Source: a virus (taxonomy: Duplodnaviria > Heunggongvirae > Uroviricota > Caudoviricetes). Taken from it: a stretch of 31,403 bases of DNA. The position numbers and the translations under genes are program-made. This document shows, piece by piece, positions 1 to 31,403 of this stretch; within the stretch, counting starts at the first letter, position 1; every line of letters starts with the position of its first letter. Where the stretch lies: the IMG/VR virus record IMGVR_UViG_2623620492_000013. One strand, written 5' to 3'. Below the pieces are notes generated by a model. It did no database searches. It saw only the letters and a list, made by a program, of their open reading frames with translations, and had not been told where the DNA came from.

Positions 1-723
1 AACACTCTGACGTTAATGGATAAAGGTTATTACTCACTGGGACTGTTAAATGCCTGGAGCCTGGCGGGAGAACACCGCCACTGGATGATACCTCTCAGAA
101 AGGGAGCGCAATATGAAGAGATCAGAAAACTGGGTAAAGGCGATCATCTGGTGAAGCTGAAAACCAGCCCGCAGGCACGAAAAAAGTGGCCGGGACTGGG
201 AAATGAAGTGACTGCCCGCCTGCTGACCGTGACGCGCAAAGGAAAAGTCTGCCATCTGCTGACGTCGATGACGGACGCCATGCGCTTCCCCGGAGGAGAA
301 ATGGGGGATCTGTACAGTCATCGCTGGGAAATCGAACTGGGATACAGGGAGATAAAACAGACGATGCAACGGAGCAGGCTGACGCTGAGAAGTAAAAAGC
401 CGGAGCTTGTGGAGCAAGAGCTGTGGGGTGTCTTACTGGCTTATAATCTGGTGAGATATCAGATGATTAAAATGGCGGAACATCTGAAAGGTTACTGGCC
501 GAATCAACTGAGTTTCTCAGAATCATGCGGAATGGTGATGAGAATGCTGATGACATTGCAGGGCGCTTCACCGGGACGTATACCGGAGCTGATGCGCGAT
601 CTTGCAAGTATGGGACAACTTGTGAAATTACCGACAAGAAGGGAAAGGGCCTTCCCGAGAGTGGTAAAGGAGAGGCCCTGGAAATACCCCACAGCCCCGA
701 AAAAGAGCCAGTCAGTTGCTTAA
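1..723 (+). CDS. IS4-family DDE transposase, 3' portion (5' end lies outside the window)
   Basis: Reading frame is open from base 1 to the stop at 723. The C-terminus carries the IS4-family signature Y-(2)-R-(3)-E-(6)-K in YSHRWEIELGYREIK. Confidence 0.75.
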   Translation, partial: NTLTLMDKGYYSLGLLNAWSLAGEHRHWMIPLRKGAQYEEIRKLGKGDHLVKLKTSPQARKKWPGLGNEVTARLLTVTRKGKVCHLLTSMTDAMRFPGGEMGDLYSHRWEIELGYREIKQTMQRSRLTLRSKKPELVEQELWGVLLAYNLVRYQMIKMAEHLKGYWPNQLSFSESCGMVMRMLMTLQGASPGRIPELMRDLASMGQLVKLPTRRERAFPRVVKERPWKYPTAPKKSQSVA

Positions 724-736
724 CTGACTGGCATTA

Positions 737-755
737 GGCCCTTAGGGGCCTTTTA
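737..755 (+). terminator. Hairpin plus T-run after the transposase stop
   Basis: ggccc-ttag-gggcc stem-loop followed by tttt. It may instead be part of the IS terminus. Confidence 0.35.
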
Positions 756-791
756 TTCTATGATAAACGGACTTTGTTTGAGAGTGACGCC

Positions 792-1118
792 ATGAAGCCC
801 AAGAAGCTAAATGCTGAGCAGCAATACAAATTAGACCTTGAATTGGTCAAGAAGAAGCCTGCGAACCGGACCGAGGCAAAAGCCCATTTGGCCGCACAGT
901 TACGGATCAGCAAGTACAAGACGCAGACCTCTTCCAAAATCCGCGTAGGCAGTTTTAAGGGGCGGAAGAAGGTACATTTCAGTAAGGCGGAACAAGCAGC
1001 CAGGGCAGCACTAAATAAAGCAAATGCCATTAGATTTTCCGAAGGGGAGGTCGAGTCCGTCGATACGGATAGAATCTCAGAAAGTAACAAACGCTGGCGC
1101 GGGAGAACTGCTGACTAA
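792..1118 (+). CDS. Hypothetical phage protein, basic
   Basis: ORF with ATG at 792 (TTG at 774 is the alternative). Lysine/arginine rich; stop overlaps the next start as TAATG. Confidence 0.5.
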
Positions 1119-1372
1119 TGTCTGACTGGAATATTGCTGCAAAGCCGCAGGAAGAACGCGACAAGGTTAATGTTGACCTGGCAGCCTCCGGCGTGGCCTA
1201 CAAAGAGCGCCTGAATATGCCGGTTATCGCCGAGCAGGTAGCTCGTGAGCAACCAGAGCATCTACGAGAGTATTTCATGGATCGCGTGCGGCACTATCGC
1301 GAGCAGAGCGTTGCATTGCCTAAGGCATCTGATCCTCGCTACATTGAAATGACTGAGCAAAATGCAAAATAA
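1118..1372 (+). CDS. Hypothetical phage protein
   Basis: 84-aa ORF translationally coupled to its upstream neighbour. No motif recognised. Confidence 0.5.
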
Positions 1373-1388
1373 ATTTCAGGAGATTCAA

Positions 1389-1649
1389 ATGGAAAATAGC
1401 ATGAGCATCACAACGATTCTTGAAAGAGAAAGGGAGCTTGATGATCTTGTTAAGGTGTGCCTCGATGAGCTTGAGGTGATTGACATCCATGGACAGGTTT
1501 ACTCAATTCCTCTTTCCCACCTAACGAACGCAGAGCAGGTGGTACATTGGGTCTGGAAGATTGCTGAGAGAGGTGATTTCGCCATGGATGTTGTTCGTAA
1601 ATTTACTGAAGTTGCGTCCCATCATGTGGGGTTTGACGCTAAAAAATAA
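1389..1649 (+). CDS. Hypothetical phage protein
   Basis: ORF with AGGAG 7 nt upstream of the ATG at 1389; the alternative start at 1362 lacks an RBS. Confidence 0.5.
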   Translation: MENSMSITTILERERELDDLVKVCLDELEVIDIHGQVYSIPLSHLTNAEQVVHWVWKIAERGDFAMDVVRKFTEVASHHVGFDAKK

Positions 1650-1699
1650 ATCGCCAAGGACCGATTTAATAGCTATACACATGTTTTACATTCCGCTCG

Positions 1700-1728
1700 C
1701 ATCTTAACCAAATCTTTCTTGGTATAAT
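1700..1728 (+). promoter_or_regulatory. Candidate sigma70 promoter with extended -10 (TGgTATAAT)
   Basis: tggtataat at 1720-1728 in an AT-rich intergenic region upstream of the zinc-ribbon ORF. Confidence 0.4.
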
Positions 1729-1767
1729 GATTTTTTACAGGCGAATGACGTGTGAGGTCCGGGATTT

Positions 1768-1965
1768 ATGACTTGTGAAGTATGTAACAAACAACCCCTT
1801 GGACGAAGGGACCCGCCTCTTCCATGCATGGTCTTGCAAGGCGATAAATCCGTTAACTTCAGCCATCACGGACGCGAAGCAAACGAGCGTTATTACAAAT
1901 GCTCGGAATGCGGTCATGAGTGGATGAGAGAGACAGGAAATTGCGGCGAAGGCTGGATTCCTTAA
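1768..1965 (+). CDS. Small zinc-ribbon protein
   Basis: 65 aa with two CxxC pairs (CEVC near the N-terminus, CSEC near the C-terminus). Confidence 0.55.
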   Translation: MTCEVCNKQPLGRRDPPLPCMVLQGDKSVNFSHHGREANERYYKCSECGHEWMRETGNCGEGWIP

Positions 1966-2043
1966 CTATATATTGTCGCTATTCGCAAATTGATTTTCTC
2001 AAATCATCCCGCCATAATTAAGTCGCAGTCGGCCTGAACACCC

Positions 2044-2090
2044 GATTGTGACTTCTGCGCATTTAAGGGGACTTAAATGCGACCACAATC
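2044..2090. repeat. Nested imperfect inverted repeat
   Basis: Perfect 10-bp arms cgcatttaag / cttaaatgcg around a GGGA loop, flanked by outer arms gattgtg / cacaatc. No T-run follows. Confidence 0.6.
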
Positions 2091-2112
2091 TGAAATCCTC
2101 ACCTTGTCACAG

Positions 2113-2142
2113 ATGCAGAAATGCACCTGCGATTTTCTGCAT
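2113..2142. repeat. 9-bp inverted repeat upstream of the ninB RBS
   Basis: atgcagaaa and tttctgcat separated by 12 bp, ending about 18 nt before the RBS aaggagg. Confidence 0.55.
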
Positions 2143-2168
2143 TCTGCGGTTTCCGTTAAGGAGGCCGT

Positions 2169-2624
2169 ATGACTCTTCCAGTAGACGGCATCAAGCTCCA
2201 TCGCGGCAACTTCGCAGCCATCGGTCAGCAGATTCAGCCCTTGCTTGATGCCGGGCAATGCTTTCGCCTTCAGGTTAAGCCGTGGCGCGAGAAGCGCAGC
2301 CTGTCGCAGAACGCTCTCAGCCACATGTGGTACACGGAAATCAGCGAATGCCTCATCACCCGCGGCAAGACCTTCGCTACGCCTGAATGGGTCAAAGACG
2401 CGATGAAGCACACCTATCTCGGCTACGAAAGCAAGGACAGGGTAGACGTCGTGTCCGGAGAGGTAACCACGGTCCAATCCCTCCGCCATACGTCAGAGCT
2501 GGAAACCGGCGAGATGTACATCTTCCTGTGCAAAGTCGAAGCCTGGGCGATGAATATTGGATGCCACCTGACCATTCCGCAGAGCTGCGAGTACCAGCAG
2601 CTGCGCGATAAGCAGGAGGCCTGA
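2169..2624 (+). CDS. ninB: NinB-family recombination protein
   Basis: 151 aa with strong RBS (taaggagg). The RSLSQN...W motif resembles lambda NinB (RSLDQN...LW); sits in a nin-like region. Confidence 0.7.
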   Translation: MTLPVDGIKLHRGNFAAIGQQIQPLLDAGQCFRLQVKPWREKRSLSQNALSHMWYTEISECLITRGKTFATPEWVKDAMKHTYLGYESKDRVDVVSGEVTTVQSLRHTSELETGEMYIFLCKVEAWAMNIGCHLTIPQSCEYQQLRDKQEA

Positions 2625-2794
2625 TGTCTACTCCACTTTCCCGCGTCATCACCAACGAAATCTTCCGCGTTCCGGCGCGCCGCAAGCGTAAGCCAGCGGT
2701 TAAGCCGTCCGACATCCCGACTTTCAAGGACTACACCGCCCGCCTGGTCGATCAGAAATGGCTGCGTCTCGCAGCGAGGAGAAAATCCGCATGA
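2624..2794 (+). CDS. Small basic hypothetical protein (56 aa, absent from the ORF track)
   Basis: ATG overlaps the ninB stop (TGATG) and its stop overlaps the phosphatase start (ATGA), a typical coupled chain of small nin-region genes. Confidence 0.45.
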
Positions 2795-3459
2795 GCATGT
2801 ATCAACGCATTAATGGCGCTGACTGGCGCAATATCTTCGTTGTGGGCGATCTGCATGGGTGCTACACGCTGCTGATGAGTGAGCTCGAAAAAGCTTCGTT
2901 CGACCCGGCGCGTGATTTGCTGATCTCGGTTGGAGACCTTGTTGACCGCGGCGCGGAAAACGTCGAGTGCCTGGAGCTGATTACTATGCCGTGGTTCCGG
3001 GCTGTGCGAGGAAACCATGAGCAGATGATGATTGATGGGCTATCGGAGTATGGGAACGTCAATCACTGGTTGGCAAATGGTGGCGGCTGGTTCTTCAATC
3101 TCGACTATGACAAAGAAGTGCTGGCTAAGGCTCTGGTTCACAAAGCAGCTGAGCTGCCACTCGTCATCGAGCTGGTTACCGCTGAGCGTAAAATCGTTAT
3201 CTGCCACGCTGACTACCCGCATAACGAATATGCGTTCGATAAGCCCATCCCGAAAGATATGGTCATCTGGAATCGTGAGAGGGTTAGCGACGCACAGGAC
3301 GGCATAGTATCGACGATAGCCGGTGCTGATCTGTTTATCTTCGGCCACACCCCAGCGCGCCAGCCCCTGAAGTATGCCAACCAGATGTACATCGACACCG
3401 GCGCCGTGTTCTGCGGAAACCTCACGCTGGTAAAGGTGCAAGGCGGTGAACATGCGTAA
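2791..3459 (+). CDS. Serine/threonine protein phosphatase (lambda PPase-like metallophosphoesterase)
   Basis: Motifs GDLHG, GDLVDRG and GNHE are characteristic of calcineurin-like phosphoesterases. Start taken at the ATG at 2791. Confidence 0.9.
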
Positions 3460-4093
3460 ACCATCCCGCCGTAAGTGCAAAGTATGCGGGGAATACTTCG
3501 TGCCGAAATTCCACGATATCCGGATCCGCTGGTGCAGCCCGGAGCACGGCGCAATCCTCGCGATGGAAGAACGTCAAAAGGAGAAGGTGAAAGCCGCTGC
3601 TAAGCGCATTAAGGAGCAGAAGGAGGCAGAGAAGGCCGGGCGCAAACGCCGCAAGGAGAGGCTGGCAGAGCTACGCCCAGCAGGTTACTACAAAGCGCAG
3701 GCTCAGCAGGCATTCAACGCCTACATCCGTGCGCGCGATGCTGATTTGCCATGCATCAGCTGCGGAGAGACCAACCCGCCAGATCTGCATGGCGGCCAAT
3801 GGGACTGCGGCCACTTCAAAACGGTCGGCGCTAACCCTGAACTGCGCTTTGAAGAGCGCAATGCCCATAAGCAGTGCAAATCCTGTAATGCCGGAGCGGG
3901 CAAATATACCGCCAAAGAGGCGACGGTAGCGCAGCAATACGAAGCTGGTCTGGTCGCTCGTTACGGGCAGGAGTACGTGGACTGGCTCAACGGCCCCCAC
4001 GAAATGACCAACTACCGCCGTGAAGACTTCATTCGGATCCGCGATGAATACCGCGCCAAGCTCAAAGCACTGAAACAGTGGGAGGCCGCATGA
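3452..4093 (+). CDS. ninG: NinG/Rap-family recombination protein
   Basis: N-terminal CKVC...WCSPEHG and central PCISCG...WDCGH...HKQCKSCN cysteine clusters match the lambda NinG pattern. Confidence 0.85.
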
Positions 4094-4206
4094 ACCAAGC
4101 CGATTTCCTCCGTTACCAGGCAGAAAGCGTTAAGCGCGCCAGCATGCCGCCAGTAGCAAAGCACAGCCAGACCAAAACCAACCAGCCTCAGAAGGAAGCC
4201 GCATAA
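4090..4206 (+). CDS. Small hypothetical protein (38 aa, absent from the ORF track)
   Basis: ATGA overlap with the ninG stop and ATAATG overlap with the Q start. Weak evidence. Confidence 0.3.
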   Translation: MNQADFLRYQAESVKRASMPPVAKHSQTKTNQPQKEAA

Positions 4207-4706
4207 TGAAACTGGAATTAACCAACGACCAGCATCAATGGGTAGACCAGTGGCTCCAGTTGTGGGGCGCATGGTGCCAGACCGGCAAGATTGATAAAGC
4301 GATGATCAACATGATTGCCAGATTCATGGCTACCGTCGAGCCCCAGCAAGCATCACGACCGGTATGTAGTGATGATGACGGGATGCTCATTGATGCTGTC
4401 ATTCGTCACTATCTGAAGAATGTGGATGAAAATGCCTGGCGGGTTGTCTTCGCCTACTACGTTTGTAACTCCAGCGAGATCCGAATTGCATCATGGCAGC
4501 ATGCAGTAAGTAAGCCTCGCCTGATGAAGACGCGTGGCGGAAATCAGTATAAACACCCAAGCATCTCGACAATCCGTAGAGAGGTGAAGCAAATCATCAA
4601 TGCCTCACTGTTCTGTTTGTACCAACCGCTGCAAAATGCGTTTAACAATCGCGAAAATGTGAGGAAAATTGCAAAAAATCCTCATAACGCGCTTGCTTTT
4701 CAATGA
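4206..4706 (+). CDS. Late-gene antitermination protein Q
   Basis: Position between the nin genes and the lysis cassette, followed by tandem intrinsic terminators. N-terminal QW/W-rich region resembles Q-family proteins as recalled. Confidence 0.7.
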   Translation: MKLELTNDQHQWVDQWLQLWGAWCQTGKIDKAMINMIARFMATVEPQQASRPVCSDDDGMLIDAVIRHYLKNVDENAWRVVFAYYVCNSSEIRIASWQHAVSKPRLMKTRGGNQYKHPSISTIRREVKQIINASLFCLYQPLQNAFNNRENVRKIAKNPHNALAFQ

Positions 4707-4767
4707 ACAAATGAGCAGAATAAATCGTATATGTTGCCGTTGTTGTGTGTGACATGAATGAATGCCA

Positions 4768-4796
4768 AGCCTCGCCATCGTGCGGGGCTTTTTTAT
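4768..4796 (+). terminator. Intrinsic terminator in the late leader (tR'-like)
   Basis: gcctcgc-catcgt-gcggggc hairpin followed by a 7-T run. Confidence 0.55.
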
Positions 4797-4872
4797 TTGC
4801 GGTACGCCGCACACAGAACCCACTACCTGGGACCCTTCGGCCAGAGAGCCGACATTGCCTTACCCTCATCTT

Positions 4873-4897
4873 CCTGGCTTGTCGCCAGGTTTTTTAT
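4873..4897 (+). terminator. Second intrinsic terminator in the late leader
   Basis: cctggc-ttgtc-gccagg hairpin followed by a T-run. Confidence 0.55.
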
Positions 4898-4995
4898 TCC
4901 AGGCCGCAGACAATCAATTCCAGATGCCACGTAGCTAACGTGTCTGACGGCCTTTCCCCTACTACCACACAGCACCCCGGAACCGGAGGTGTGGA

Positions 4996-5316
4996 ATGCA
5001 ACGTATGAACCCAACAGATGGACACAATCTGCCTTACTGGTGGTCAACTCTTCTGGGGTTATTTTCCGTTCTCAGTTTACAGGACTACGTCTTTATTCTC
5101 GGCGCGCTGGTCTCTGCATACTTCACGATTAAGACCTATTACGCGAAACGGAAAGAAGAGCGTGAACGGCTGGAAGAAGAAAAGAAACGTACACAGTTAC
5201 TGGCTAAATACCTTGCTGAGGTAAGCGAGAAACCCCACTCCGAACGTCCGGCATCTGCCGAGGTTGTAACGGAGGCAATGCGGAGAATGTCCAGTGGCGA
5301 ACTTGAAGCTGAGTAA
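4996..5316 (+). CDS. Holin
   Basis: 106 aa with two hydrophobic segments and a highly charged C-terminus; GGAGG RBS; first gene of the lysis cassette. Confidence 0.8.
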   Translation: MQRMNPTDGHNLPYWWSTLLGLFSVLSLQDYVFILGALVSAYFTIKTYYAKRKEERERLEEEKKRTQLLAKYLAEVSEKPHSERPASAEVVTEAMRRMSSGELEAE

Positions 5317-9596: not shown

Positions 9597-10946
9597 ATGA
9601 ATGACAAATTAACTCTCGCCGTCAACCATGCGTTGAACGATGCGCGGATGGCTCGCGCCCGTATGGGGCTGATGGCGCCTACAATGGGGCTGGACAACAA
9701 GCGCCACTCTGCATGGTGCGAGTATGGATTCCCTGAGCAGGTAACCTACGAAAACCTTTATGCCCTGTACCGACGCGGTGGTATTGCCCACGGCGCAGTA
9801 GAGAAACTGGTGGGCAAGTGCTGGCAGACTAACCCGGAAATCATCGAGGGTGATCAGGCAGACAAAAAGCGCAAAGAAACCGCCTGGGAGAAAAAGGCCA
9901 AACAGGTATTCACCAACCGATTCTGGCGCTCATTCTCTGAGGCCGATCGCCGTCGTCTGGTGGGCCGTTATGCTGGCATCCTTCTGCACGTCCGCGATGA
10001 AAAAGACTGGAACCTTCCGGTAACCAAAGGGCGAGGTCTTCAGAAAATATCGGTGGCGTGGGCAGGATCGCTTACGGTGAGCGAGTGGGACACTGGCCTG
10101 AACTCGAAGACGTACGGCCAGCCTCAGATGTGGCAGTACGCCGAACGCTTGCCGAATGGTTCAAGTCGCCGCGTCAATATCCACCCCGATCGCGTTTTCA
10201 TCCTTGGTGATTACTCAGACGATGCTATTGGCTTCCTTGAGCCAGCTTATAACGCCTTTGTAAGCCTGGAGAAGGTAGAGGGTGGATCCGGCGAGTCATT
10301 CCTGAAGAACGCCGCGCGCCAGCTTAATGTCAACTTTGAGAAGGAAATCGACTTCAACAATCTTGCGTCACTTTATGGCGTGAGCATTGACGAGTTGCAG
10401 GATAAGTTTAACGAAGTTGCCGGGGAAATGAACCGTGGCAACGATGTTTTGATGACAACCCAAGGGGCCACGGTCACACCGCTGGTGACTGCTGTAGCTG
10501 ATCCTTCAGCGACCTATAACGTCAACCTGCAAACGGCTGCCGCCGGTGTTGATATCCCGACGCGCATTCTGGTTGGTAATCAGCAGGCCGAGCGCTCCAG
10601 CACCGAAGACCAGAAATACTTTAATGCTCGTTGTCAGTCGCGACGCGTAGACCTCTCTTTCGAAATAGAGGACTTCTGCGACAAGCTTATCGATCTACAA
10701 ATCGTAGACTCAGTCAGTCAGAAGGCTGTTATCTGGGATGACCTTAACGAACAGACCGGTACTGAGAAGCTCACTAACGCCAAGACCATGGGCGAAATTA
10801 ACCAGACCATGCAGGGCAGCGGCGAAGAGCCAGCGTTCAGCCGTGAAGAGATTCGTACAGCTGCGGGTTATGACAATGACGACGAAGAGCCGTTAGGAGA
10901 AGAGGATGGCGACGAACAAGACGAAGCCACCAATTCTACCGCGTAA
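9597..10946 (+). CDS. Portal protein
   Basis: About 450 aa between terL and the head-morphogenesis gene, with an acidic C-terminal tail. Confidence 0.8.
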   Translation: MNDKLTLAVNHALNDARMARARMGLMAPTMGLDNKRHSAWCEYGFPEQVTYENLYALYRRGGIAHGAVEKLVGKCWQTNPEIIEGDQADKKRKETAWEKKAKQVFTNRFWRSFSEADRRRLVGRYAGILLHVRDEKDWNLPVTKGRGLQKISVAWAGSLTVSEWDTGLNSKTYGQPQMWQYAERLPNGSSRRVNIHPDRVFILGDYSDDAIGFLEPAYNAFVSLEKVEGGSGESFLKNAARQLNVNFEKEIDFNNLASLYGVSIDELQDKFNEVAGEMNRGNDVLMTTQGATVTPLVTAVADPSATYNVNLQTAAAGVDIPTRILVGNQQAERSSTEDQKYFNARCQSRRVDLSFEIEDFCDKLIDLQIVDSVSQKAVIWDDLNEQTGTEKLTNAKTMGEINQTMQGSGEEPAFSREEIRTAAGYDNDDEEPLGEEDGDEQDEATNSTA

Positions 10947-18873: not shown

Positions 18874-21177
18874 ATGTCTGAGAAAGCAGGCGAGATTTAT
18901 TACGACATCGAGGCCGATGTATCTGGCTTGCTCAAGGCCCAGGGAAAGGCTAATAAGTCGCTCGACTCCATCGGCAACTCGGCGACCAATGCAGCCAAAA
19001 AGATGGATGAGTTGCAGACGAACATCAACCGCGTCGCCGGGGCAATTGCCGCCTCACTCGTTGTTGACTGGGGTAAGGCGTTTCTCGTAGCTGCTGACAA
19101 CATGAGCCAGCTCAACGCGCGTATAGAGAGGCTCACTGGTAGCGCAGCGACAGCCTCGCAGACTATGCAGAATCTGATGCGCATCAGTTCGGCAACGGGT
19201 GGTTCGCTACAGGATACAGCAAAGCTGTGGGAGACTCTCAGCACGGCGTTGCGCGATACCGGAGCGACCAACGGCCAGATAATCCAGCTTACCGAAACAC
19301 TTCAGAAAATAGGTCGCATTGGCGGATCCTCGACAGAAGAAATGGCGAATGCTCTTCGTCAGTTCGGCCAGTCAATTTCATCAGGTACTGTCCGGGCGGA
19401 GGAGTTCAACTCCATCCTTGAGCAAATGCCGGAACTGGCGCGCCAGATTGCCGCCGGGATGGGTGTAAGCATCGGAGAGCTTCGTCAGCTCATGCTGGAC
19501 GGGAAACTGACGGCAGAAGATGCTCTCAACGCCATTCAGAAGCAAACCGGCTCAGTGAATGCAGAGTTCGAGAAACTCCCGCGCACGCTTTCACAGGCTA
19601 ATACCGCGCTGACAAACTCATTCCTGTCGATGATTGACTCTGTTAACCAGGCGACTGGAGCAAGCACAGGGCTGGTTGCGGTTATCGATTCAATGACTGC
19701 TGCACTCGACCGGCTGGTGGGTAAAGCGGCGTCGGCAGATGCTCAGATATCGGATCTGAACAGCACCGCTGAAATGTTTACCCGCCGCGCGCGCACCTGG
19801 TCATGGCTTGGGCTTGATGGTTGGGAGGCGCAAAACAAAGCGCTGGCCGGGCTGAGTAATAAAGCCGCCATGCTGGTTGGCGACCTGGCCGCTGTTTCCA
19901 AAGCATCGCAGACCGCGGCTAACACAAAGCCGATCGAGATTAAAACGACCGCCTCAGCTACTGGCGGCAAAGCGAAAGGCGGAAAGTCTGCTGCACAGAA
20001 AGAAGCTGAGCAATACGCTAAAGCGCAGGACTCGATAAACGAAAAATTGGAAGCCCTGAGACAAGAATCTATTCTTGCAGCAGGTTCAACCAGCGAATTA
20101 ACCCGTGAGCAGCAACTACTAAGGGCAGAGATGTCTCTTGGTGCCGATGCAACGGATGAACAGCGACAGAAGGCAAGAGAGTACAAAGCACAGGCTTTGG
20201 ATACTGCTGAAGCATTGAAAAAGCAAGCCCAGGCAGAAAGAGATAAGCAAGCTGCGCAGTCCAACTTCAGCAGCCTACAAAGCCAAGCTTCTCCTGTGGC
20301 TAGCGTTGAAAGCCAGTTTCAGCAGCAGATTGAGCAACTCAACCAGTACGCTGCGCTCTATCCTCAGAAAATAGCTGAGGTAGAGGCTGTAAGGGCTAGC
20401 ATTGAGGAGCAATATCGCCAAAAAAGACTCGATGCTCAGTGGCAAGAATTAAGTCAAATGAATATCGGCTTCGGCATGCTAACGAGTGCCGTGGATGCCT
20501 TTGGCGGAAACGCATCAAACGTCATAACTGGACTGATCACAGGAACGATGTCAGCTCAGGATGCTATGCGCTCACTCGGTAACACGATGCTGAATAGCGT
20601 GGTAAATGCGCTAGTCCAGGTTGGGGTTGAGGCTCTCAAAAACTTCATTATCGGTCAGACATTGGGCGCAGCAGCTACTGCTGCTGGAGCATCTCAGGCT
20701 GCAATCTTGGCTACAGCTTGGGCTCCTGCCGCCGCCATGGCTAGCCTCGCTTCATTTGGGGCCAACTCAGTTCCTGCCATGACAGGAATTGCTTCAACGG
20801 TAGGCCTGGCACAGGGCCTTGCTTTAACCGGTATGCGTTACAATGGCGGCCCGGTGAATGCAGGAGGTCTTTATCAGGTCGGTGAGCGAGGGAAACCTGA
20901 GATTTACCAGGCCAGTACCGGTAAGCAGTACATGATACCGGGCGACAACGGCAGGGTGATCAGCAATAAGGACATGACTTCGGGTGGAGGGGGCGGTGCT
21001 CCGATTCTCAACATCTACAACTACTCATCCGCGTCTGTAGATGCTCAGGCTACACAGAACGGTGATGGTTCATGGACGCTTGAAGCTTTTATAGCTGACA
21101 TGAATAACGGCGGCCCGGCAAGCAACGCCATTACCAGCAACATGAACGTTAAACGCACGCCAAGAGGGCAGGGCTGA
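18874..21177 (+). CDS. Tail tape measure protein
   Basis: 767 aa, Ala/Gln-rich with low-complexity helical regions and a Gly-rich segment near the C-terminus. Confidence 0.9.
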   Translation: MSEKAGEIYYDIEADVSGLLKAQGKANKSLDSIGNSATNAAKKMDELQTNINRVAGAIAASLVVDWGKAFLVAADNMSQLNARIERLTGSAATASQTMQNLMRISSATGGSLQDTAKLWETLSTALRDTGATNGQIIQLTETLQKIGRIGGSSTEEMANALRQFGQSISSGTVRAEEFNSILEQMPELARQIAAGMGVSIGELRQLMLDGKLTAEDALNAIQKQTGSVNAEFEKLPRTLSQANTALTNSFLSMIDSVNQATGASTGLVAVIDSMTAALDRLVGKAASADAQISDLNSTAEMFTRRARTWSWLGLDGWEAQNKALAGLSNKAAMLVGDLAAVSKASQTAANTKPIEIKTTASATGGKAKGGKSAAQKEAEQYAKAQDSINEKLEALRQESILAAGSTSELTREQQLLRAEMSLGADATDEQRQKAREYKAQALDTAEALKKQAQAERDKQAAQSNFSSLQSQASPVASVESQFQQQIEQLNQYAALYPQKIAEVEAVRASIEEQYRQKRLDAQWQELSQMNIGFGMLTSAVDAFGGNASNVITGLITGTMSAQDAMRSLGNTMLNSVVNALVQVGVEALKNFIIGQTLGAAATAAGASQAAILATAWAPAAAMASLASFGANSVPAMTGIASTVGLAQGLALTGMRYNGGPVNAGGLYQVGERGKPEIYQASTGKQYMIPGDNGRVISNKDMTSGGGGGAPILNIYNYSSASVDAQATQNGDGSWTLEAFIADMNNGGPASNAITSNMNVKRTPRGQG

Positions 21178-25044: not shown

Positions 25045-27021
25045 ATGGCTACGACACCTACCAACCTGTCAGTACCGAGCGAGTCCCCCCGCGATCTGAA
25101 ATTTAACGCAGGGAAAATTGATGAATTTGTGACATCGCTGGCACTTCAGTACATTGATCGCTTTGGCAATGCTCATTACACCATCGAAGGCCTGCGCTGG
25201 ATGGCGCAGCAGGCTATTTCCCAGTATGGGTGGGTTCCGATCGGAACATTCCAGGATGGTGCAACATTAACTCTGCCTAACCAAATCCTGAAAGACACCA
25301 CCGACGGTGAATACTATCGCTGGGACGGTTCATTTTTGCCATCAGGGAAGGTTGTGCCAAATGGTTCTACGCCAGGATCAACAGGTGGGGTTGGTGTAGG
25401 TGCATGGATAAGTGTTGGTGATTCGGCATTGCGCTCAATGCTTGCTTCTGAGCAAGGAGTTTCCATGGTTGGCGGCATTGCCATGGAGCTCGACTCTCAG
25501 GCCGATTTGGCAACAAACACAACTGTTCAGGGACGGCTGGTGGCAGTAAAGAACACTGTCGGTAGTTACAATAAATACTCCATAATTCCAAACTCTGGTG
25601 TGCTTGGCGATGGCGATGTAATCATCGACAGGGTGGATGGATTGCAGGCAGAGCTTCAGATTGAAGGGGTTCTGGATGTACGGGCTTTTGCAAAGTCTGG
25701 TAGGACAGACCAACAAATAATTCAGGCGGCATTAGATTACGCTGGATCTAAATCAGGTCATTGGGTTGTTGGCTTGACGGCCAAAGATAAAACCGGAACA
25801 CCATGGAGATTCAGCACACTTAACGTACCTGACAGCACTGTTTTTCAGGGGCATGGTGGCGCTCTTAAGCTAAATGACAATGTCTGTGTCGATGCTTCAG
25901 TTAGCTATTACTTGCTGCATAACATAAACGGCAATGATGTATGGCTGGACGGGTTATATATCGATGGCAATATGAGCAATAACTCCTTGTTCACCGTTGC
26001 TGATCTTGTAACCCTCATCGGAGAAGGGTCAAAAATCACCAATTGCACCCTTATGAATGCCCCCGACTCTGGTCTAATGTTCTCAGGTGTAAAGAATGGT
26101 CTAGCGTCTGCAAACACCATCGGCAATGGCAGAGATGTTGCTATCTATGCAAATGCAAGCGCAGACGGCAGCGCAAGGAACAATGTGTTATCTGACAATG
26201 TTCTGTACGGATTCCCGGCAGGAGGAATAGGATTTAAACGTTATTTTGCTGATTGTGTAGCCAGCGGGAACGCAATTTATCTCTGTGGAAACGGCGTGAC
26301 ATTTGAGGACTTTACTGTTGAGACCGAAGGTAAATTCCCCAAAAGGATTACGCTGTCTGGTACTTTTATGCGAGACATCGGCTTTCCACACCGCGCCACT
26401 GCTAACGTAGCAGAGCGAGGAATTAGCATTCAGCGTGCCTCTGATATCAGCATCACTGGTCTTCAGACAGTTAACGTTTCTGGCAATATATTATACATTG
26501 GAAATGGCACAGATATCTGCGTTGATAACGCCATGCTTAGAGGTTATGTTGCAAGTCCACAAAGCAACGGAAATAACGGAGTGCTAGTCGTTAATGCCCA
26601 AGGAGGGCACCTGAGTAATGTGAATGTTACCGCAGTGGCAAGCAGGGCAGGATATTTCCAGACCGTTAATGGCATGTCCGTTCGTGGCGGAAGATGGGTC
26701 AGTTCAGGGACTCAGTCTGGCATCAGGGTAGATGCTACCGCTCAATTTTCAATATTTAATCCTGACTATATTTCTGGTGGATCTGGAGCTGACGAAGAGT
26801 GGTTTGAAGGAGCAACAGGGATATCGAACGGATACATCCGGGCTAATGCAACAGGCCCAGGCAGATACGGAATAAGAGAGCTTTCTGCTGGGCAGGGCAC
26901 TAACCCAAATACAAGGCTTATCCCCAGATTTATTGGAGAGAAATGCGTTACCTTGTCAGATAGCGCAATCTGGATGGCAAAAGGTATGTCTAACTCTGAT
27001 TGGGTTAAGTTATCTAACTGA
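25045..27021 (+). CDS. Tail spike protein with right-handed beta-helix domain (putative polysaccharide depolymerase)
   Basis: 658 aa. The N-terminal ~110 aa look like a conserved tail-attachment module. The rest has Gly/Asn/Val-rich repeats (GNGRDVAIYANASADGSARNNVLSDNVLYG) typical of pectate-lyase-like beta-helices, and is more AT-rich than the N-terminus. Confidence 0.75.
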   Translation: MATTPTNLSVPSESPRDLKFNAGKIDEFVTSLALQYIDRFGNAHYTIEGLRWMAQQAISQYGWVPIGTFQDGATLTLPNQILKDTTDGEYYRWDGSFLPSGKVVPNGSTPGSTGGVGVGAWISVGDSALRSMLASEQGVSMVGGIAMELDSQADLATNTTVQGRLVAVKNTVGSYNKYSIIPNSGVLGDGDVIIDRVDGLQAELQIEGVLDVRAFAKSGRTDQQIIQAALDYAGSKSGHWVVGLTAKDKTGTPWRFSTLNVPDSTVFQGHGGALKLNDNVCVDASVSYYLLHNINGNDVWLDGLYIDGNMSNNSLFTVADLVTLIGEGSKITNCTLMNAPDSGLMFSGVKNGLASANTIGNGRDVAIYANASADGSARNNVLSDNVLYGFPAGGIGFKRYFADCVASGNAIYLCGNGVTFEDFTVETEGKFPKRITLSGTFMRDIGFPHRATANVAERGISIQRASDISITGLQTVNVSGNILYIGNGTDICVDNAMLRGYVASPQSNGNNGVLVVNAQGGHLSNVNVTAVASRAGYFQTVNGMSVRGGRWVSSGTQSGIRVDATAQFSIFNPDYISGGSGADEEWFEGATGISNGYIRANATGPGRYGIRELSAGQGTNPNTRLIPRFIGEKCVTLSDSAIWMAKGMSNSDWVKLSN

Positions 27022-28255
27022 AGTCAGGCCGCTGATGCGGCCTTTTCTCTGATAAAAACTGATTTATTAACTGCATAGTGTAAATAAGCATTAATACTTG
27101 AAAAACGAAAAGTACTCTCTTGCCTGAGCCATATGCTGAAGGCGAGAACATAATCATCATCACTGACGCACACGCCAGGAGAATGGTGAAACAACTGTAA
27201 AATGCATCATTTTTACACCTGGCATTAAAAACTGCGAGGCATATCATTGAACTAATTGTCAGTAGAGTCACTGCGTGAGATATGTAAACAGTAGTTCCAG
27301 CCCAATTACTTCCTGATAGATAATTAGAGTTTACCATTCCTTTGAATATATTCGCCCCAAGGAGAAAAGATAAGAACATTATTAATTTTACGGCTACAAT
27401 CGCAGCCGAAATTGATGGCAGGACTTTAAAATCTTTTCTTTTCACATAGAGTAACAACAAAGTAAGCATAGCGATATTGATTAGTACGTTGCCAGAAGAT
27501 GATACGTGACTGCTTAAGACATCCACACCTATTGATAGTTTTTGAAAGATGCCATAGCTAACGTAATCTGGAAGCCAGTTTTTTGACTCACTAAAATATC
27601 TTAACTTATTACCGGGAGCAGAAAAAAGAATAATGGCGCAAGCAATAGTTGTAACGAACATTGCGGCTATGATTGGAGTTATCCTTTTGAGATAGATAGC
27701 TCTGCATGCTAGAAATATCAAGAAGCAGATAGATATCTGTTCGTTGAACCCAAAGTACATAGCAGGTAAAACAGAGAGTGACTTAAGTATAATATTTAAT
27801 GATTTCTCGTTAAGTACTGCATAAACAGACAGTAGGCAAAGAGTTGCTGGCATTAGATAGTTATATGACCCTGCGATCCACCATGATGCATCCGCATTAA
27901 CTTCAGGTTCTATTAAGAAAAACATAAATAAAGAAACTGTGAAAGGAATCATCGCTCCTTGCTTTTCTCGAAGAGTTATCTTACTTATAATAAAAGATAT
28001 CAAAATAACACATGCTGGTATGAAAGTTTTCCAAAAGTATTCATAACGTATTGTATAGACCATGAGAGCATCTATAGTTAATCTCCCACTCCATTTTATA
28101 TATCTGTCATATATAACATCATATACATTAGAGTTTAAAAGCAAGCGTGAGAAATTTAAATCATCTCCTGAGTGACGCAAGGATAAACCAGAAAAAAGAA
28201 ATGCAATAATAGCGATAATAAGCATGGCGGCAGTGACTTTTATGGCCACTATCAT
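27014..28255 (-). CDS. Polytopic inner-membrane protein (putative serotype-specific O-antigen glucosyltransferase, GtrC-like)
   Basis: About 413 aa, many predicted transmembrane helices, very AT-rich, last gene of an operon that begins gtrA-gtrB. Start taken at ATG 28255 (TAAAATG junction); 28282 is the alternative. Confidence 0.6.
   Translation of the reverse strand: MIVAIKVTAAMLIIAIIAFLFSGLSLRHSGDDLNFSRLLLNSNVYDVIYDRYIKWSGRLTIDALMVYTIRYEYFWKTFIPACVILISFIISKITLREKQGAMIPFTVSLFMFFLIEPEVNADASWWIAGSYNYLMPATLCLLSVYAVLNEKSLNIILKSLSVLPAMYFGFNEQISICFLIFLACRAIYLKRITPIIAAMFVTTIACAIILFSAPGNKLRYFSESKNWLPDYVSYGIFQKLSIGVDVLSSHVSSSGNVLINIAMLTLLLLYVKRKDFKVLPSISAAIVAVKLIMFLSFLLGANIFKGMVNSNYLSGSNWAGTTVYISHAVTLLTISSMICLAVFNARCKNDAFYSCFTILLACASVMMIMFSPSAYGSGKRVLFVFQVLMLIYTMQLINQFLSEKRPHQRPDFS
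27026..27047. terminator. Hairpin between the convergent tail spike and gtr genes
   Basis: aggccgc-tgat-gcggcct palindrome. It overlaps the last codons of the reverse-strand membrane protein gene. Confidence 0.45.
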
Positions 28256-28256
28256 T

Positions 28257-28721
28257 TTATTTGCATTGGTAATGGATTTCATAATTATGGAGTCCGTCGT
28301 TAATCAATATAGCAATATTGCCAGTGAATTTTTTAACCTTTTTGTTTCTTACTTGAGAGTTAAACCCAGAGCGATCATAAAGCAATGGTTTTCCAAAAGC
28401 TCGACTTACATCACTTCTTCTGGTCATTGACTTGGGTATGCGCAACCATTTATCTCCGCCTATGCCAGCATAGATATTAACACTATAAAGTGTTTGCAAA
28501 TTGTAGTTTTTTACTGCTGCCCAACCATTAACTACAAGTCTGCCGTCCTCAACCCGGCATCTATCTATATGATATATAATTCCTGAACTTGTTTTAGCAT
28601 TGTCAAATTTAAATGTCGAAACGTCTGCTTTGTTAATATAAAAATAAAAGCCAGCAGGCAACATAATAGATGTTACAAACAATCCGACAAGTAATGTTTT
28701 TACAGGTAGTGAGACCTTCAT
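28257..28721 (-). CDS. Membrane-anchored hypothetical protein in the gtr operon
   Basis: 154 aa with one N-terminal transmembrane segment and a soluble domain. Coupled to gtrB upstream (ATGA) and the membrane protein downstream. Confidence 0.55.
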
Positions 28722-29635
28722 CCTTTCCTCTTCAAAATATATCTAGGACGGCTCTTTACTTCGGTGTAAATTCTTCCGATGTACTCACCAAGCACCCCGA
28801 TACCAATCAATTGGACTCCACCAAGGAAAAGGATAGAAACAAGAAGTGACGGGTAGCCCCGCACTGCGTTACCAAAAGCAAGGGTATCAACTATCATCCA
28901 TGAGCCATAGAGGAACGCCACGCCTGCAACCAGAAGGCCGATGTAAGTCCACATGCGAAGCGGGAAAGTAGAGAAACTCGTGATACCCTCAAGTGCCAGG
29001 TTCCACAACTTCCAGCCGTTAAATTTCGTACTTCCTGCGACGCGTTCTGCGCGGGCATATTCAACGACATCTGTACGGCCGCCAACCCAGCTCAATACGC
29101 CCTTCATGAACAGGTTGCGCTCTGGCATGAGCTTAATGTTTTCCACCACCTCGCGGGACATAAGGCGGAAGTCACCAACGTTTTCTTCAATCTTCGGGTT
29201 GCTGATTTTGTTGTGCAGCTTATAGAACCATTCAGCGGTCTTGCGCTTCAGTCTGCCATCTGTAGAGCGATCAGAGCGTTTAGCGAGAACCATATCAGCA
29301 CCGGCCTGCCATTTCTCGATAAGGTGAGGAATGACTTCGATAGGGTCCTGCAAGTCTACGTCAATCGGGATAATTGCTTCACCGGTCGCGTGGTCAAGGC
29401 CGGCGAACAGGGCTGGTTCTTTCCCAAAGTTACGAGTAAATGACAATGGAACAACAAGCGTATCGGCAACAGCAAGCGCGTTAATAATTGATTCTGTCGC
29501 GTCTTTGCTGCCGTCATTGATGAATACTATCTCGACTTCATGCTGCTGAAGGCCTTCAAATTCCCGAACCGTTTTATAAAAAATCGGTATCGCGTCTTCT
29601 TCGTTGAAGACGGGAACGACCAGAGAAATTTTCAT
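28718..29635 (-). CDS. gtrB: Bactoprenol glucosyltransferase GtrB (GT2 family)
   Basis: 305 aa with the N-terminal glycosyltransferase-2 fold motif VVPVFNEE...INDGSKD and two C-terminal transmembrane helices; close match to GtrB as recalled from Shigella and Salmonella serotype-converting phages. Confidence 0.9.
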
Positions 29636-29994
29636 TTCGCATCCCTAAAGACAATAAACTTAGAATAGAAAAAGCCACATACAAGACTAATGGCGGAGAA
29701 CGCCACCAGTGTGACGATTGGCGGTAAGCCACACCTGTCAGCAGCCCAACCTACAGCAGCACTCAGCGTTCCCATAAACCCAACGTAAAGCATGTAACGC
29801 AGCGTGGAAGTGGATGCTTTAAAAGTGAAGCGTGCGTTAGCGTAGAAACTAAAGCTGACGGCTACCACGAAACCTGCAAAGTTAGCCAATGCCTGACTTG
29901 TGGATAGGCCATACACGCAAACACCAAACACGACCCAGTGAATGAGTGTGTTCAGTACGCCAATCGATGTGTACTTAGCAAAAAGTTTTAACAT
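29632..29994 (-). CDS. gtrA: Bactoprenol-linked glucose translocase GtrA
   Basis: 120-aa four-helix membrane protein; [20 protein letters not shown]...FIVFRDAK matches GtrA closely. Confidence 0.9.
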
Positions 29995-30070
29995 TAGAAA
30001 AATCAGTCAATTCTGAGAAGGCAGAAGTTTAGCACCAACAAACAACTTGATCGACTATCAGAATAAGATG

Positions 30071-30090
30071 TACTGTATATGTGTACAGTA
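30071..30090 (+). promoter_or_regulatory. LexA (SOS) box
   Basis: TACTGTATATGTGTACAGTA is a near-perfect match to the enterobacterial LexA consensus CTGT-N8-ACAG with AT-rich spacer, 19 nt upstream of the ATG at 30110. Confidence 0.8.
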
Positions 30091-30109
30091 TTTATTTTTG
30101 GGTGACTAT

Positions 30110-30349
30110 ATGCCGCGTCGTTCAGATATCGTGATCGCCTTCAGAGCCTCTATTGTGCATGAAAGGTCAGGCCGCAGGATTGTGAAAACTGCTGATTTTG
30201 TTCAGGAACTACTAAAGGTCAACTGGGACCTAAGTATGGAAGAGGCGAATCAGTGGATAGATAGGTACACAACCTGCTTCAAAGACATCACTCCTGACCA
30301 CGGAGAGAACAAGACGTGGTTCATGTACAACCCGAATGGAGGGCTTTGA
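30110..30349 (+). CDS. Hypothetical 79-aa protein, first gene of the LexA-box operon
   Basis: ATG at 30110 directly downstream of the LexA box; the longer reading frame from 30047 would include the box. No similarity recognised to DinI or other known small SOS proteins. Confidence 0.5.
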   Translation: MPRRSDIVIAFRASIVHERSGRRIVKTADFVQELLKVNWDLSMEEANQWIDRYTTCFKDITPDHGENKTWFMYNPNGGL

Positions 30350-30350
30350 T

Positions 30351-30734
30351 ATGGCATTTGCATCCCCGGCTAAGGACTATGTGGAGCGCGGCATCTCTTT
30401 AGATGCTGAGTTGATTAGCCATCCATCGGCGACTTACTATGTCAGGTCTGATGTGGCTATTTTGCGTGCCGGCATTAAGCAAGGCGCGCTGCTTGTCGTG
30501 GACTCAGCAGTAAATCCATGTGATGGCTCGATCGTTCTCTGTTCCATCGATGGCCAGTTTGTCCTGAGGTATTACCGTATGTTCCCATGCTTGCATCTGG
30601 AGAACATGGAGACAGGTCGGAAGGAAAGGGCGCGCGGACTCGACGACGGAAGTGCAATCGATGTTTTCGGCGTGGTGACATACATCATTAACAATGCGCG
30701 CACCGGTGAATTCGACGACAACCCGGTTATTTAA
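30351..30734 (+). CDS. UmuD'-like protein (pre-truncated UmuD homologue, HumD-like)
   Basis: Aligns by eye with E. coli UmuD from Gly25 onward (ASPAKDYVE..., HPSATY, LLVVDSA, DVFGVV). GGAGG RBS 8 nt before ATG 30351; the alternative start is 30336. The Ser and Lys positions of the catalytic dyad appear substituted in my manual alignment. Confidence 0.7.
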   Translation: MAFASPAKDYVERGISLDAELISHPSATYYVRSDVAILRAGIKQGALLVVDSAVNPCDGSIVLCSIDGQFVLRYYRMFPCLHLENMETGRKERARGLDDGSAIDVFGVVTYIINNARTGEFDDNPVI

Positions 30735-31403
30735 TCAGACGGGCTCGATTAACTCCGGGCCCTGATTCTTCACATTACCAACAGCGCGCGACACTGCGTG
30801 CCAGATAAATGCATCTGCTGGCACCGAACCGTCGGAAACAATCTCCTCTGCTTCTTTCCCGCCCACATCCTGCCGCATCCATTCGCGTGCTGCTTCCGGT
30901 GACAGAACGAGTTGCCTGCGGTCGTGAATATCGACCAGTCCTTTATCGGCAGCCGCCGTGACTATCATAAAGCCTTCCGCTTCATCATCACGCTCAAACG
31001 GCGTACTGCCTATCGCCGCCATGAATATCGGCTTACCGTCCGCCCGATGAATGAAGTACGGCTGCTTCTTTTCGCCTTGCTTCTTCCATTCGAACCAGCC
31101 ATCAGCAAAGACTATCGCCCGGCCATGTTGCCAGAGCGGTTTGAACATCCGACTGGTGGCCGCAGTTTCCACACGTGCGTTTATCAGAGGCGGCTTATCC
31201 CACCATCCTGGAGCATAGCCCCAGTAAACCGGATCGAGGTGTAGTTGTTCATCTCGTTCGCTCAGCAGCAAAACTTTAGTGCCTGGCGCCACGTTGTACC
31301 GGCCAATGGGTTCCGGGTCGAACGGAATGTCACACTCGGCCTCTTCAGCGATTAACGCCAGATAATCTTCACGGGTCATTGATTGAGAGAAACGTCCGCA
31401 CAT
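30735..31403 (-). CDS. yedK: SOS-response-associated peptidase (SRAP), YedK-like host gene
   Basis: 222 aa starting MCGRF (the Cys2 nucleophile is the SRAP hallmark); the start codon is the last three bases of the window. Confidence 0.8.
   Translation of the reverse strand: MCGRFSQSMTREDYLALIAEEAECDIPFDPEPIGRYNVAPGTKVLLLSERDEQLHLDPVYWGYAPGWWDKPPLINARVETAATSRMFKPLWQHGRAIVFADGWFEWKKQGEKKQPYFIHRADGKPIFMAAIGSTPFERDDEAEGFMIVTAAADKGLVDIHDRRQLVLSPEAAREWMRQDVGGKEAEEIVSDGSVPADAFIWHAVSRAVGNVKNQGPELIEPV

Follow-up and report, generated by a model that had tools for sequence, protein, structure and literature searches.

The DNA analysed here, a stretch of 31,403 nucleotides from IMG/VR record IMGVR_UViG_2623620492_000013 (referred to in its entirety as the window), is in our confident view best explained as a prophage that has received a recent IS4 insertion in a terminator-like hairpin, with expression of the late-gene antiterminator Q probably impaired. 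Comparison with related sequences demonstrates the identity and orientation of the element, both of its junctions, its target-site duplication and the recency of its arrival, and shows the prophage to be otherwise intact. The event itself is an ordinary one of a known kind, that is, a known insertion sequence at a new site of the type it prefers in an intact prophage. In the course of events that we propose, canonical IS4 would have transposed recently into a lambda-like, Cobrasixvirus-related prophage of an Escherichia coli ST10 lineage, the carrier lineage being that of strain 131/07 or a near-identical isolate.

The initial annotation had recognized an IS4-family transposase at the start of the window, and this was borne out by matches to Pfam DDE_Tnp_1 and NCBIfam NF033592 and by identity to full-length IS4. 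The open frame at positions 1–723 of the plus strand comprises 240 codons and a stop (TAA, 721–723) and represents the C-terminal part of the IS4 transposase InsG, with the second D, the E and the YREK motif. This partial transposase matched DDE_Tnp_1 with an E-value of 2.6e-19 and, scored on the partial protein alone, the curated NCBI model NF033592 (IS4 family transposase) with 140.9 bits, above the cut-off of 115 bits. At its residue 105 is the Y-2-R-3-E-6-K motif (YSHRWEIELGYREIK), the Y(2)R(3)E(6)K motif being the defining trait of the IS4 family (PMC2266710). Positions 1–736 of the plus strand (nt 691–1426 of the 1426-bp element) were identical at 736/736 bases to the full-length IS4 copies at loci L002, L036, L053 and L066, our references being copies from two E. 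coli genomes, the prophage locus L002 and phage Lambda_4B5. No amino-acid difference separates the partial transposase from the L002 copy, and the matching E. coli records label the element "IS4-like element IS4 family transposase." By its sequence the element is IS4 itself, the canonical E. coli copy and not a mere relative.

The boundary of IS4 lies at base 736 (...CTGACTGGCATTA), at neither 723 nor 791, and positions 737–791 are phage intergenic DNA. The spacing of about 70 bp originally noted between the transposase stop and the first phage ORF was accurate, the gap being 68 nt to the ATG at 792. The right terminal inverted repeat of 18 bp (CTTAACTGACTGGCATTA, 719–736) was recognized by its match to the left end; read inwards, the right end (TAATGCCAGTCAGTTAAG) and the left end present in contigs L166 and L167 (TAATGCCGATCAGTTAAG) match at 16/18 positions, and both fit the signature -AATR--------WTW- of the IS4 subgroup (PMC2266710). 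A terminator-like scan identified a subterminal IS4 hairpin with an 11-bp stem that spans the transposase stop (707–732) and has its T-rich tail on the minus strand, and the RNA fold of positions 700–775 was −31 kcal/mol (z = −5.5). The right 736 bp of IS4 (from the window) and the left 78 bp (from L166) are canonical at this locus, from which we infer that the element is full-length there; nt 79–690 are absent from the sequences covering the locus. The truncated 240-aa transposase product also ends 11 unrelated contigs, none of which is this prophage.

The left junction is not visible in the window and was recovered from other assemblies that are tied to the window through sequence identity. 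A rare variant of the cro-like protein (P0133) led to contigs SRR3492224_188 (L167) and JXUH01000035.1 (L166), both of which finish with phage early-region sequence (...ATAAATCAAGGCCCTTAGGGG) joined to the left end of IS4 (TAATGCCGATCAGTTAAGG...), and a rare lysozyme variant led to the Logan contig SRR3492224_453 (L022), which carries the right junction and begins with 30 nt of the IS4 right end joined to a flank identical to that in the window. It is feasible that SRR3492224 represents reads of the same isolate as the window. The left junction upheld the proposed position of the element between the early region and the nin region and showed the upstream sequence to be a regular left end of IS4 bordered by a target duplication and not a larger non-IS gene, which was the outcome the initial annotation had named as contrary to its reading. 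The 12-bp sequence GGCCCTTAGGGG at positions 737–748 is the right copy of this duplication; in L166 and L167 it also immediately precedes the left end of IS4, and it is present as a single copy in the empty site. Because the left and right junctions carry the same 12 bp, the event is, as read from these assemblies, a simple insertion in which the transposase gene is co-directional with the early-right operon. An exact match to the right junction was sought in 50,697 phage records, 5,426 complete E. coli genomes, viral and metagenome contigs and species-representative genomes, and none was found; the predicted left junction had no match in viral or metagenome contigs. Look-ups via common phage proteins and variants of the 222-aa upstream protein retrieved empty sites only. 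One contig that had looked as if it stopped close to the site (L026) was discarded, the contig merely having ended in intact sequence. The insertion site of IS4 is thus new among the collections searched.

In several prophages that have no IS at this position, the match to the window starts at precisely base 736, with zero mismatches across 15,089 bases in L020 and 11,889 bases in L016, in both of which the site reads ...GATATAAATCAAGGCCCTTAGGGGCCTTTTATTCTATG. On the upstream side, IS4-bearing L166 and empty-site L164 are the same over 14.3 kb except for a single synonymous base in the integrase gene. The IS4-bearing assembly (JXUH) is that of E. coli 131/07 and the sister assembly with the empty site (LCVH) is that of strain 3234/A, both strains being ST10 isolates from bovine mastitis (PMC4966475). 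As the empty-site prophages match at every base but this one synonymous change, the IS4 insertion is recent by this measure, and IS4 is essentially the sole difference between the 131/07 and 3234/A prophages over the parts compared. A different mobile unit was observed in a close relative from E. coli FDAARGOS_1277, in which 6.3 kb comprising ISEcp1, ISKpn26 and blaCTX-M-32 (L001 16356–22625) lies in the holin gene at a point equivalent to approximately window 5085–5091, the holin gene (4996–5316) coming shortly after Q; apart from this unit, the prophage and the window are 100% identical across 736–5091.

The first phage ORF (792–1118, plus strand) encodes a 108-aa protein (PHROG 14068, E-value 3.4e-69) that occurs in exactly this form in many lambdoid prophages, always 93 nt past the upstream gene. 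It is followed at 1118–1372 by a homologue of the DNA polymerase III theta subunit (HolE-like; Pfam DNA_pol3_theta, E-value 6e-35), a gene kept in this module across many lambdoid prophages, and then by two small ORFs, a YbcN/NinB-like gene, NinE, a Ser/Thr phosphatase, NinG and Q. Domain matches supported the names that had been given to ninB, the phosphatase, ninG and Q, and that of NinE as well. Q itself (4206–4706, plus strand) matched Pfam Phage_antitermQ (E-value 2e-21) and PHROG 943 (E-value 1.5e-70). Two terminator-like sites follow it (4767–4790 and 4873–4889), and beyond these are the holin, lysozyme, Rz, terminase, portal, head and tail genes and a tail spike. Upstream of the IS are an integrase, recombination genes, an S24 repressor, cro-like and cII/YdaT-like genes, O, P and accessory genes. 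The resulting succession of replication genes, nin genes, Q, terminators, lysis genes and structural genes is the lambdoid gene order, and the nearest isolated phage, Enterobacter phage CobraSix, has the same order. No tRNA was found in the window.

The essential late and lysis proteins of CobraSix are all represented in the window by counterparts of full length. The tape-measure protein (18874–21177) is 767 aa long vs. 1029 aa in CobraSix and aligns with it in two in-frame blocks, so that the gene appears not to be broken and the tail is presumably shorter. The right part of the window contains, on the minus strand, a cluster of gtrA, gtrB and a type-specific O-antigen modification gene (27014–29994), followed by UmuD/UmuC-like (HumD/Pol V) genes at 30047–31403, the window stopping before attR; the gtr cluster and the UmuD/UmuC-like genes have only 80–91% identity to anything in complete E. 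coli genomes. The suggestion that the prophage is cryptic did not hold in the sense of decay, as all essential late genes are full length relative to CobraSix, identity to the empty-site prophages extends over 15.1 kb and a single synonymous base differs upstream. We consequently rejected a decayed prophage, the late genes being intact and the flanks near-identical to those of empty-site prophages, and conclude from the gene content that the prophage is otherwise intact.

The empty site consists of a 7-bp GC stem and tetraloop between A-rich and T-rich arms (AAGGCCC-TTAG-GGGCCTT), and the stem, the tetraloop and a following TTTTATT are features of a predicted terminator. In L016, where it is intact, this hairpin is the sole strong plus-strand terminator-like site from the immunity region to Q, and it is kept in relatives with different upstream genes. 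In L003–L012 (approximately 9880–9945) the upstream genes are unrelated, yet the last ~60 nt of the upstream gene and the hairpin are common to them; this puts the mosaic joint within the 3′ end of that gene rather than at the hairpin. The insertion broke the left copy of the hairpin, whereas the right copy was re-formed directly after the 11-bp end hairpin of IS4, and the terminator-like scan placed this rebuilt hairpin and T-run (AGGCCC-TTAG-GGGCCT then TTTATT) at 736–757 on the plus strand.

Such a site is typical of IS4. Right ends collected from species-representative genomes yielded 115 unique right flanks, in which T occurs at +17 to +21 in 74–96, G at +9 to +12 in 61–66, and C at +1 in 96 and at +4 in 84 of the 115. 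For the 28 surveyed sites with both ends in the locus, the duplications were 11–14 bp and the rebuilt empty sites had a median fold of −16.5 kcal/mol vs. −10.5 kcal/mol for controls at random positions from the same loci (p = 2.6e-7), with 79% of the sites and 22% of the controls reaching −14 kcal/mol or lower. The pattern to emerge is an A-run, a GC hairpin and a T-run, and the window flank fits it at most of the informative positions, its departures being a G in place of the common C at +1 and an A that breaks the T-run at +19. A marked target-arm specificity has been described for the IS4 subgroup (PMC2266710). In our proposed mechanism IS4 would have entered the loop and inner stem of this conserved GC-rich hairpin between an A-run and a T-run, the site having been chosen because IS4 prefers such terminator-like palindromes, and the hairpin would sit between the replication and accessory genes and the module leading to the ninB-like gene, ninG and Q. 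The choice of site follows a preference seen both in the literature and in our survey, and as such carries little weight for general biology.

The consequence of the insertion for Q is less certain than the insertion itself. Because IS4 lies between the early promoters and the nin and Q genes, pR transcripts must cross it to reach Q, and this part of the initial annotation stands, the early promoters being upstream and the element co-directional; polarity on Q, the other part, is a plausible prediction. Full-length IS4 has a promoter-like site at nt 25–52 and, just inside its left end, a hairpin (−18.8 kcal/mol) with a subsequent U7 that together immediately precede the transposase ATG. Folding predicts that a transcript entering IS4 from outside would form this hairpin-U7 structure; the transcript of IS4 itself would probably start inside the left hairpin arm and so escape it. 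Rightward early transcripts would accordingly meet the entry hairpin with its U7 as a first obstacle, 1.4 kb of IS DNA as a second and the rebuilt target terminator as a third, and their passage to Q would depend on early antitermination.

Signals for antitermination were sought in the isogenic empty-site early region, in which PHROGs and Pfam returned no N homologue, no boxA was present within one mismatch, no put-like repeat common to the pL leader and the pR operon was found and no Rfam family matched. Phage_N_antitermin had no match in early regions of the L016, L020 and L164 type, and has one in the relative L009. The features of lambda N/nut early antitermination were thus not found, although N-like proteins are small and divergent and could be missed. 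The first ORF past the putative pL encodes an acidic protein that is unlike N and has no informative PHROG match; it is 113–115 aa long (L016 2782–3129, minus strand) and is overlapped on the plus strand by an ORF at L016 2488–3042 whose RefSeq name is ECs_2282-family zinc-binding protein, annotations differing in which of the two overlapping ORFs is called. Operator-like repeats (TAGCAT..CGCTAAA) flank pL and pR. Given the three obstacles and the lack of recognisable N/nut or put-type antitermination, we lean toward the view that the insertion would substantially reduce or delay expression of Q and the late genes on induction. Precise loss of the IS would restore the prophage.

The alternative that we take most seriously, and would place slightly short of probable, is that the insertion is neutral, with early transcription being termination-resistant through an unrecognised factor or RNA, or the terminators being leaky, such that Q is expressed and bursts are normal. 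The prophage shows no decay, and even in the intact phage, transcripts bound for Q must already pass a terminator-like hairpin; moreover, a co-directional IS4 is found inside the late operon in the phage record PhiR70_1 and in five complete-genome prophages. Weighing on the other side are an isogenic early region devoid of any recognised N homologue, boxA, put-like repeat or Rfam element and a predicted IS4 entry hairpin much stronger than the native one (−18.8 kcal/mol and U7 vs. a 7-bp stem and UUUUAUU), and the PhiR70_1 precedent is one of Q-modified late transcription and not of early transcription. A site resembling a sigma-70 promoter (TTGATT-17-CATAAT, 9/12) at 1990–2018, within the 203-bp gap that precedes the ninB-like gene, could, if active, feed nin and Q transcription independently of pR. 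A stronger form of the impairment that we favor, in which IS4 would have swapped a leaky tR2-like terminator for its own strong entry terminator and, in one step that can be undone, silenced Q together with the late genes, is put forward tentatively and is rather doubtful.

Outward transcription from IS4 into the nin genes had been suggested as an alternative to polarity. It is very unlikely that transcripts leaving IS4 feed the 108-aa, theta and nin genes and make their expression constitutive in the lysogen. The transposase gene is aimed at the phage genes, its stop falling 68 nt from the first ORF, and one low-stringency promoter match (TAGGCC-18-TATGAT) extends across the junction at 735–764. 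This match scores just 8/12, the plus strand has no promoter-like site of normal stringency before 1990, and any read-through from the transposase gene would run first into the 11-bp hairpin at the IS4 end and next into the re-formed GC hairpin and T-run (736–757). With a lone 8/12 match and these hairpins between IS4 and the first phage gene, an outward promoter was rejected. Least credible of all is a reading of the IS4 end as the edge of a deletion or rearrangement, or as a chimeric assembly, in a prophage that would lack its early region, for which it may be said that the window opens inside IS4 with its own upstream side out of view and that strains rich in IS4 (up to 32 places per genome) can recombine between copies, and which we rejected on the strength of both junctions and the collinear flanks, as in 131/07 and SRR3492224 the early region runs up to the corresponding left end of IS4 and 12 bp of the window flank are perfectly duplicated there, the right junction was seen again in an independent assembly and both flanks are collinear with empty-site prophages.

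The insertion has modest practical value, which lies in the strains, 131/07 and 3234/A forming a natural near-isogenic pair with IS4 present in one and absent from the other. Such a pair could show how a lambdoid phage with no recognisable N gets transcription to Q, and also the degree of polarity that IS4 exerts within the early operon of a phage.

Of the systems to which this insertion can be compared, the closest is IS4 of E. coli itself (InsG; the type element of the IS4 family, IS4 subgroup), from which there is no difference within the element, and the 12-bp duplication falls within the 10–13 bp of the subgroup (PMC2266710). Insertions of the same IS4 into other lambdoid phages were seen in PhiR70_1 (PV340577.1) and in lambda-like prophages of five complete E. 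coli genomes, where it occupies a hairpin between E (major capsid) and FI, co-directional with the phage operon and with a 12-bp duplication (GGCCCTTCGGGG), the hairpin differing from that in the window by one loop base within the duplicated 12 bp (IS4 coordinates L002 5311–6736 and L035 3752–5177), and in Lambda_4B5 (LR595863.1), where it occupies a hairpin between tail-fibre genes with a 14-bp duplication. Both resemble the window in having as target a GC hairpin with A/T-rich arms between genes, but they lie in the late operon, which is read by Q-modified polymerase, whereas the window site is in the early-right operon upstream of Q. The PhiR70_1 record names E. coli C as host and suggests by analogy that antiterminated phage transcription can cross IS4; we found no papers on PhiR70_1 or Lambda_4B5, and their viability is taken from the records.

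Polar IS insertions in operons were reportedly relieved by lambda N antitermination in work by Adhya, Gottesman and de Crombrugghe from 1974. The likeness to those systems is an IS between a promoter and distal genes, with an outcome that hangs on a termination-resistant polymerase; the difference is that N and nut are not recognisable in this prophage, and relief of polarity therefore cannot be assumed. Lambda tR2 and the nin-region terminators are intrinsic terminators in the early-right operon, and the target hairpin differs from tR2 in that four small genes separate it from the ninB-like gene. The resemblance to tR2 is one of position only, that of a terminator-like hairpin after the replication genes and ahead of the nin genes and Q.
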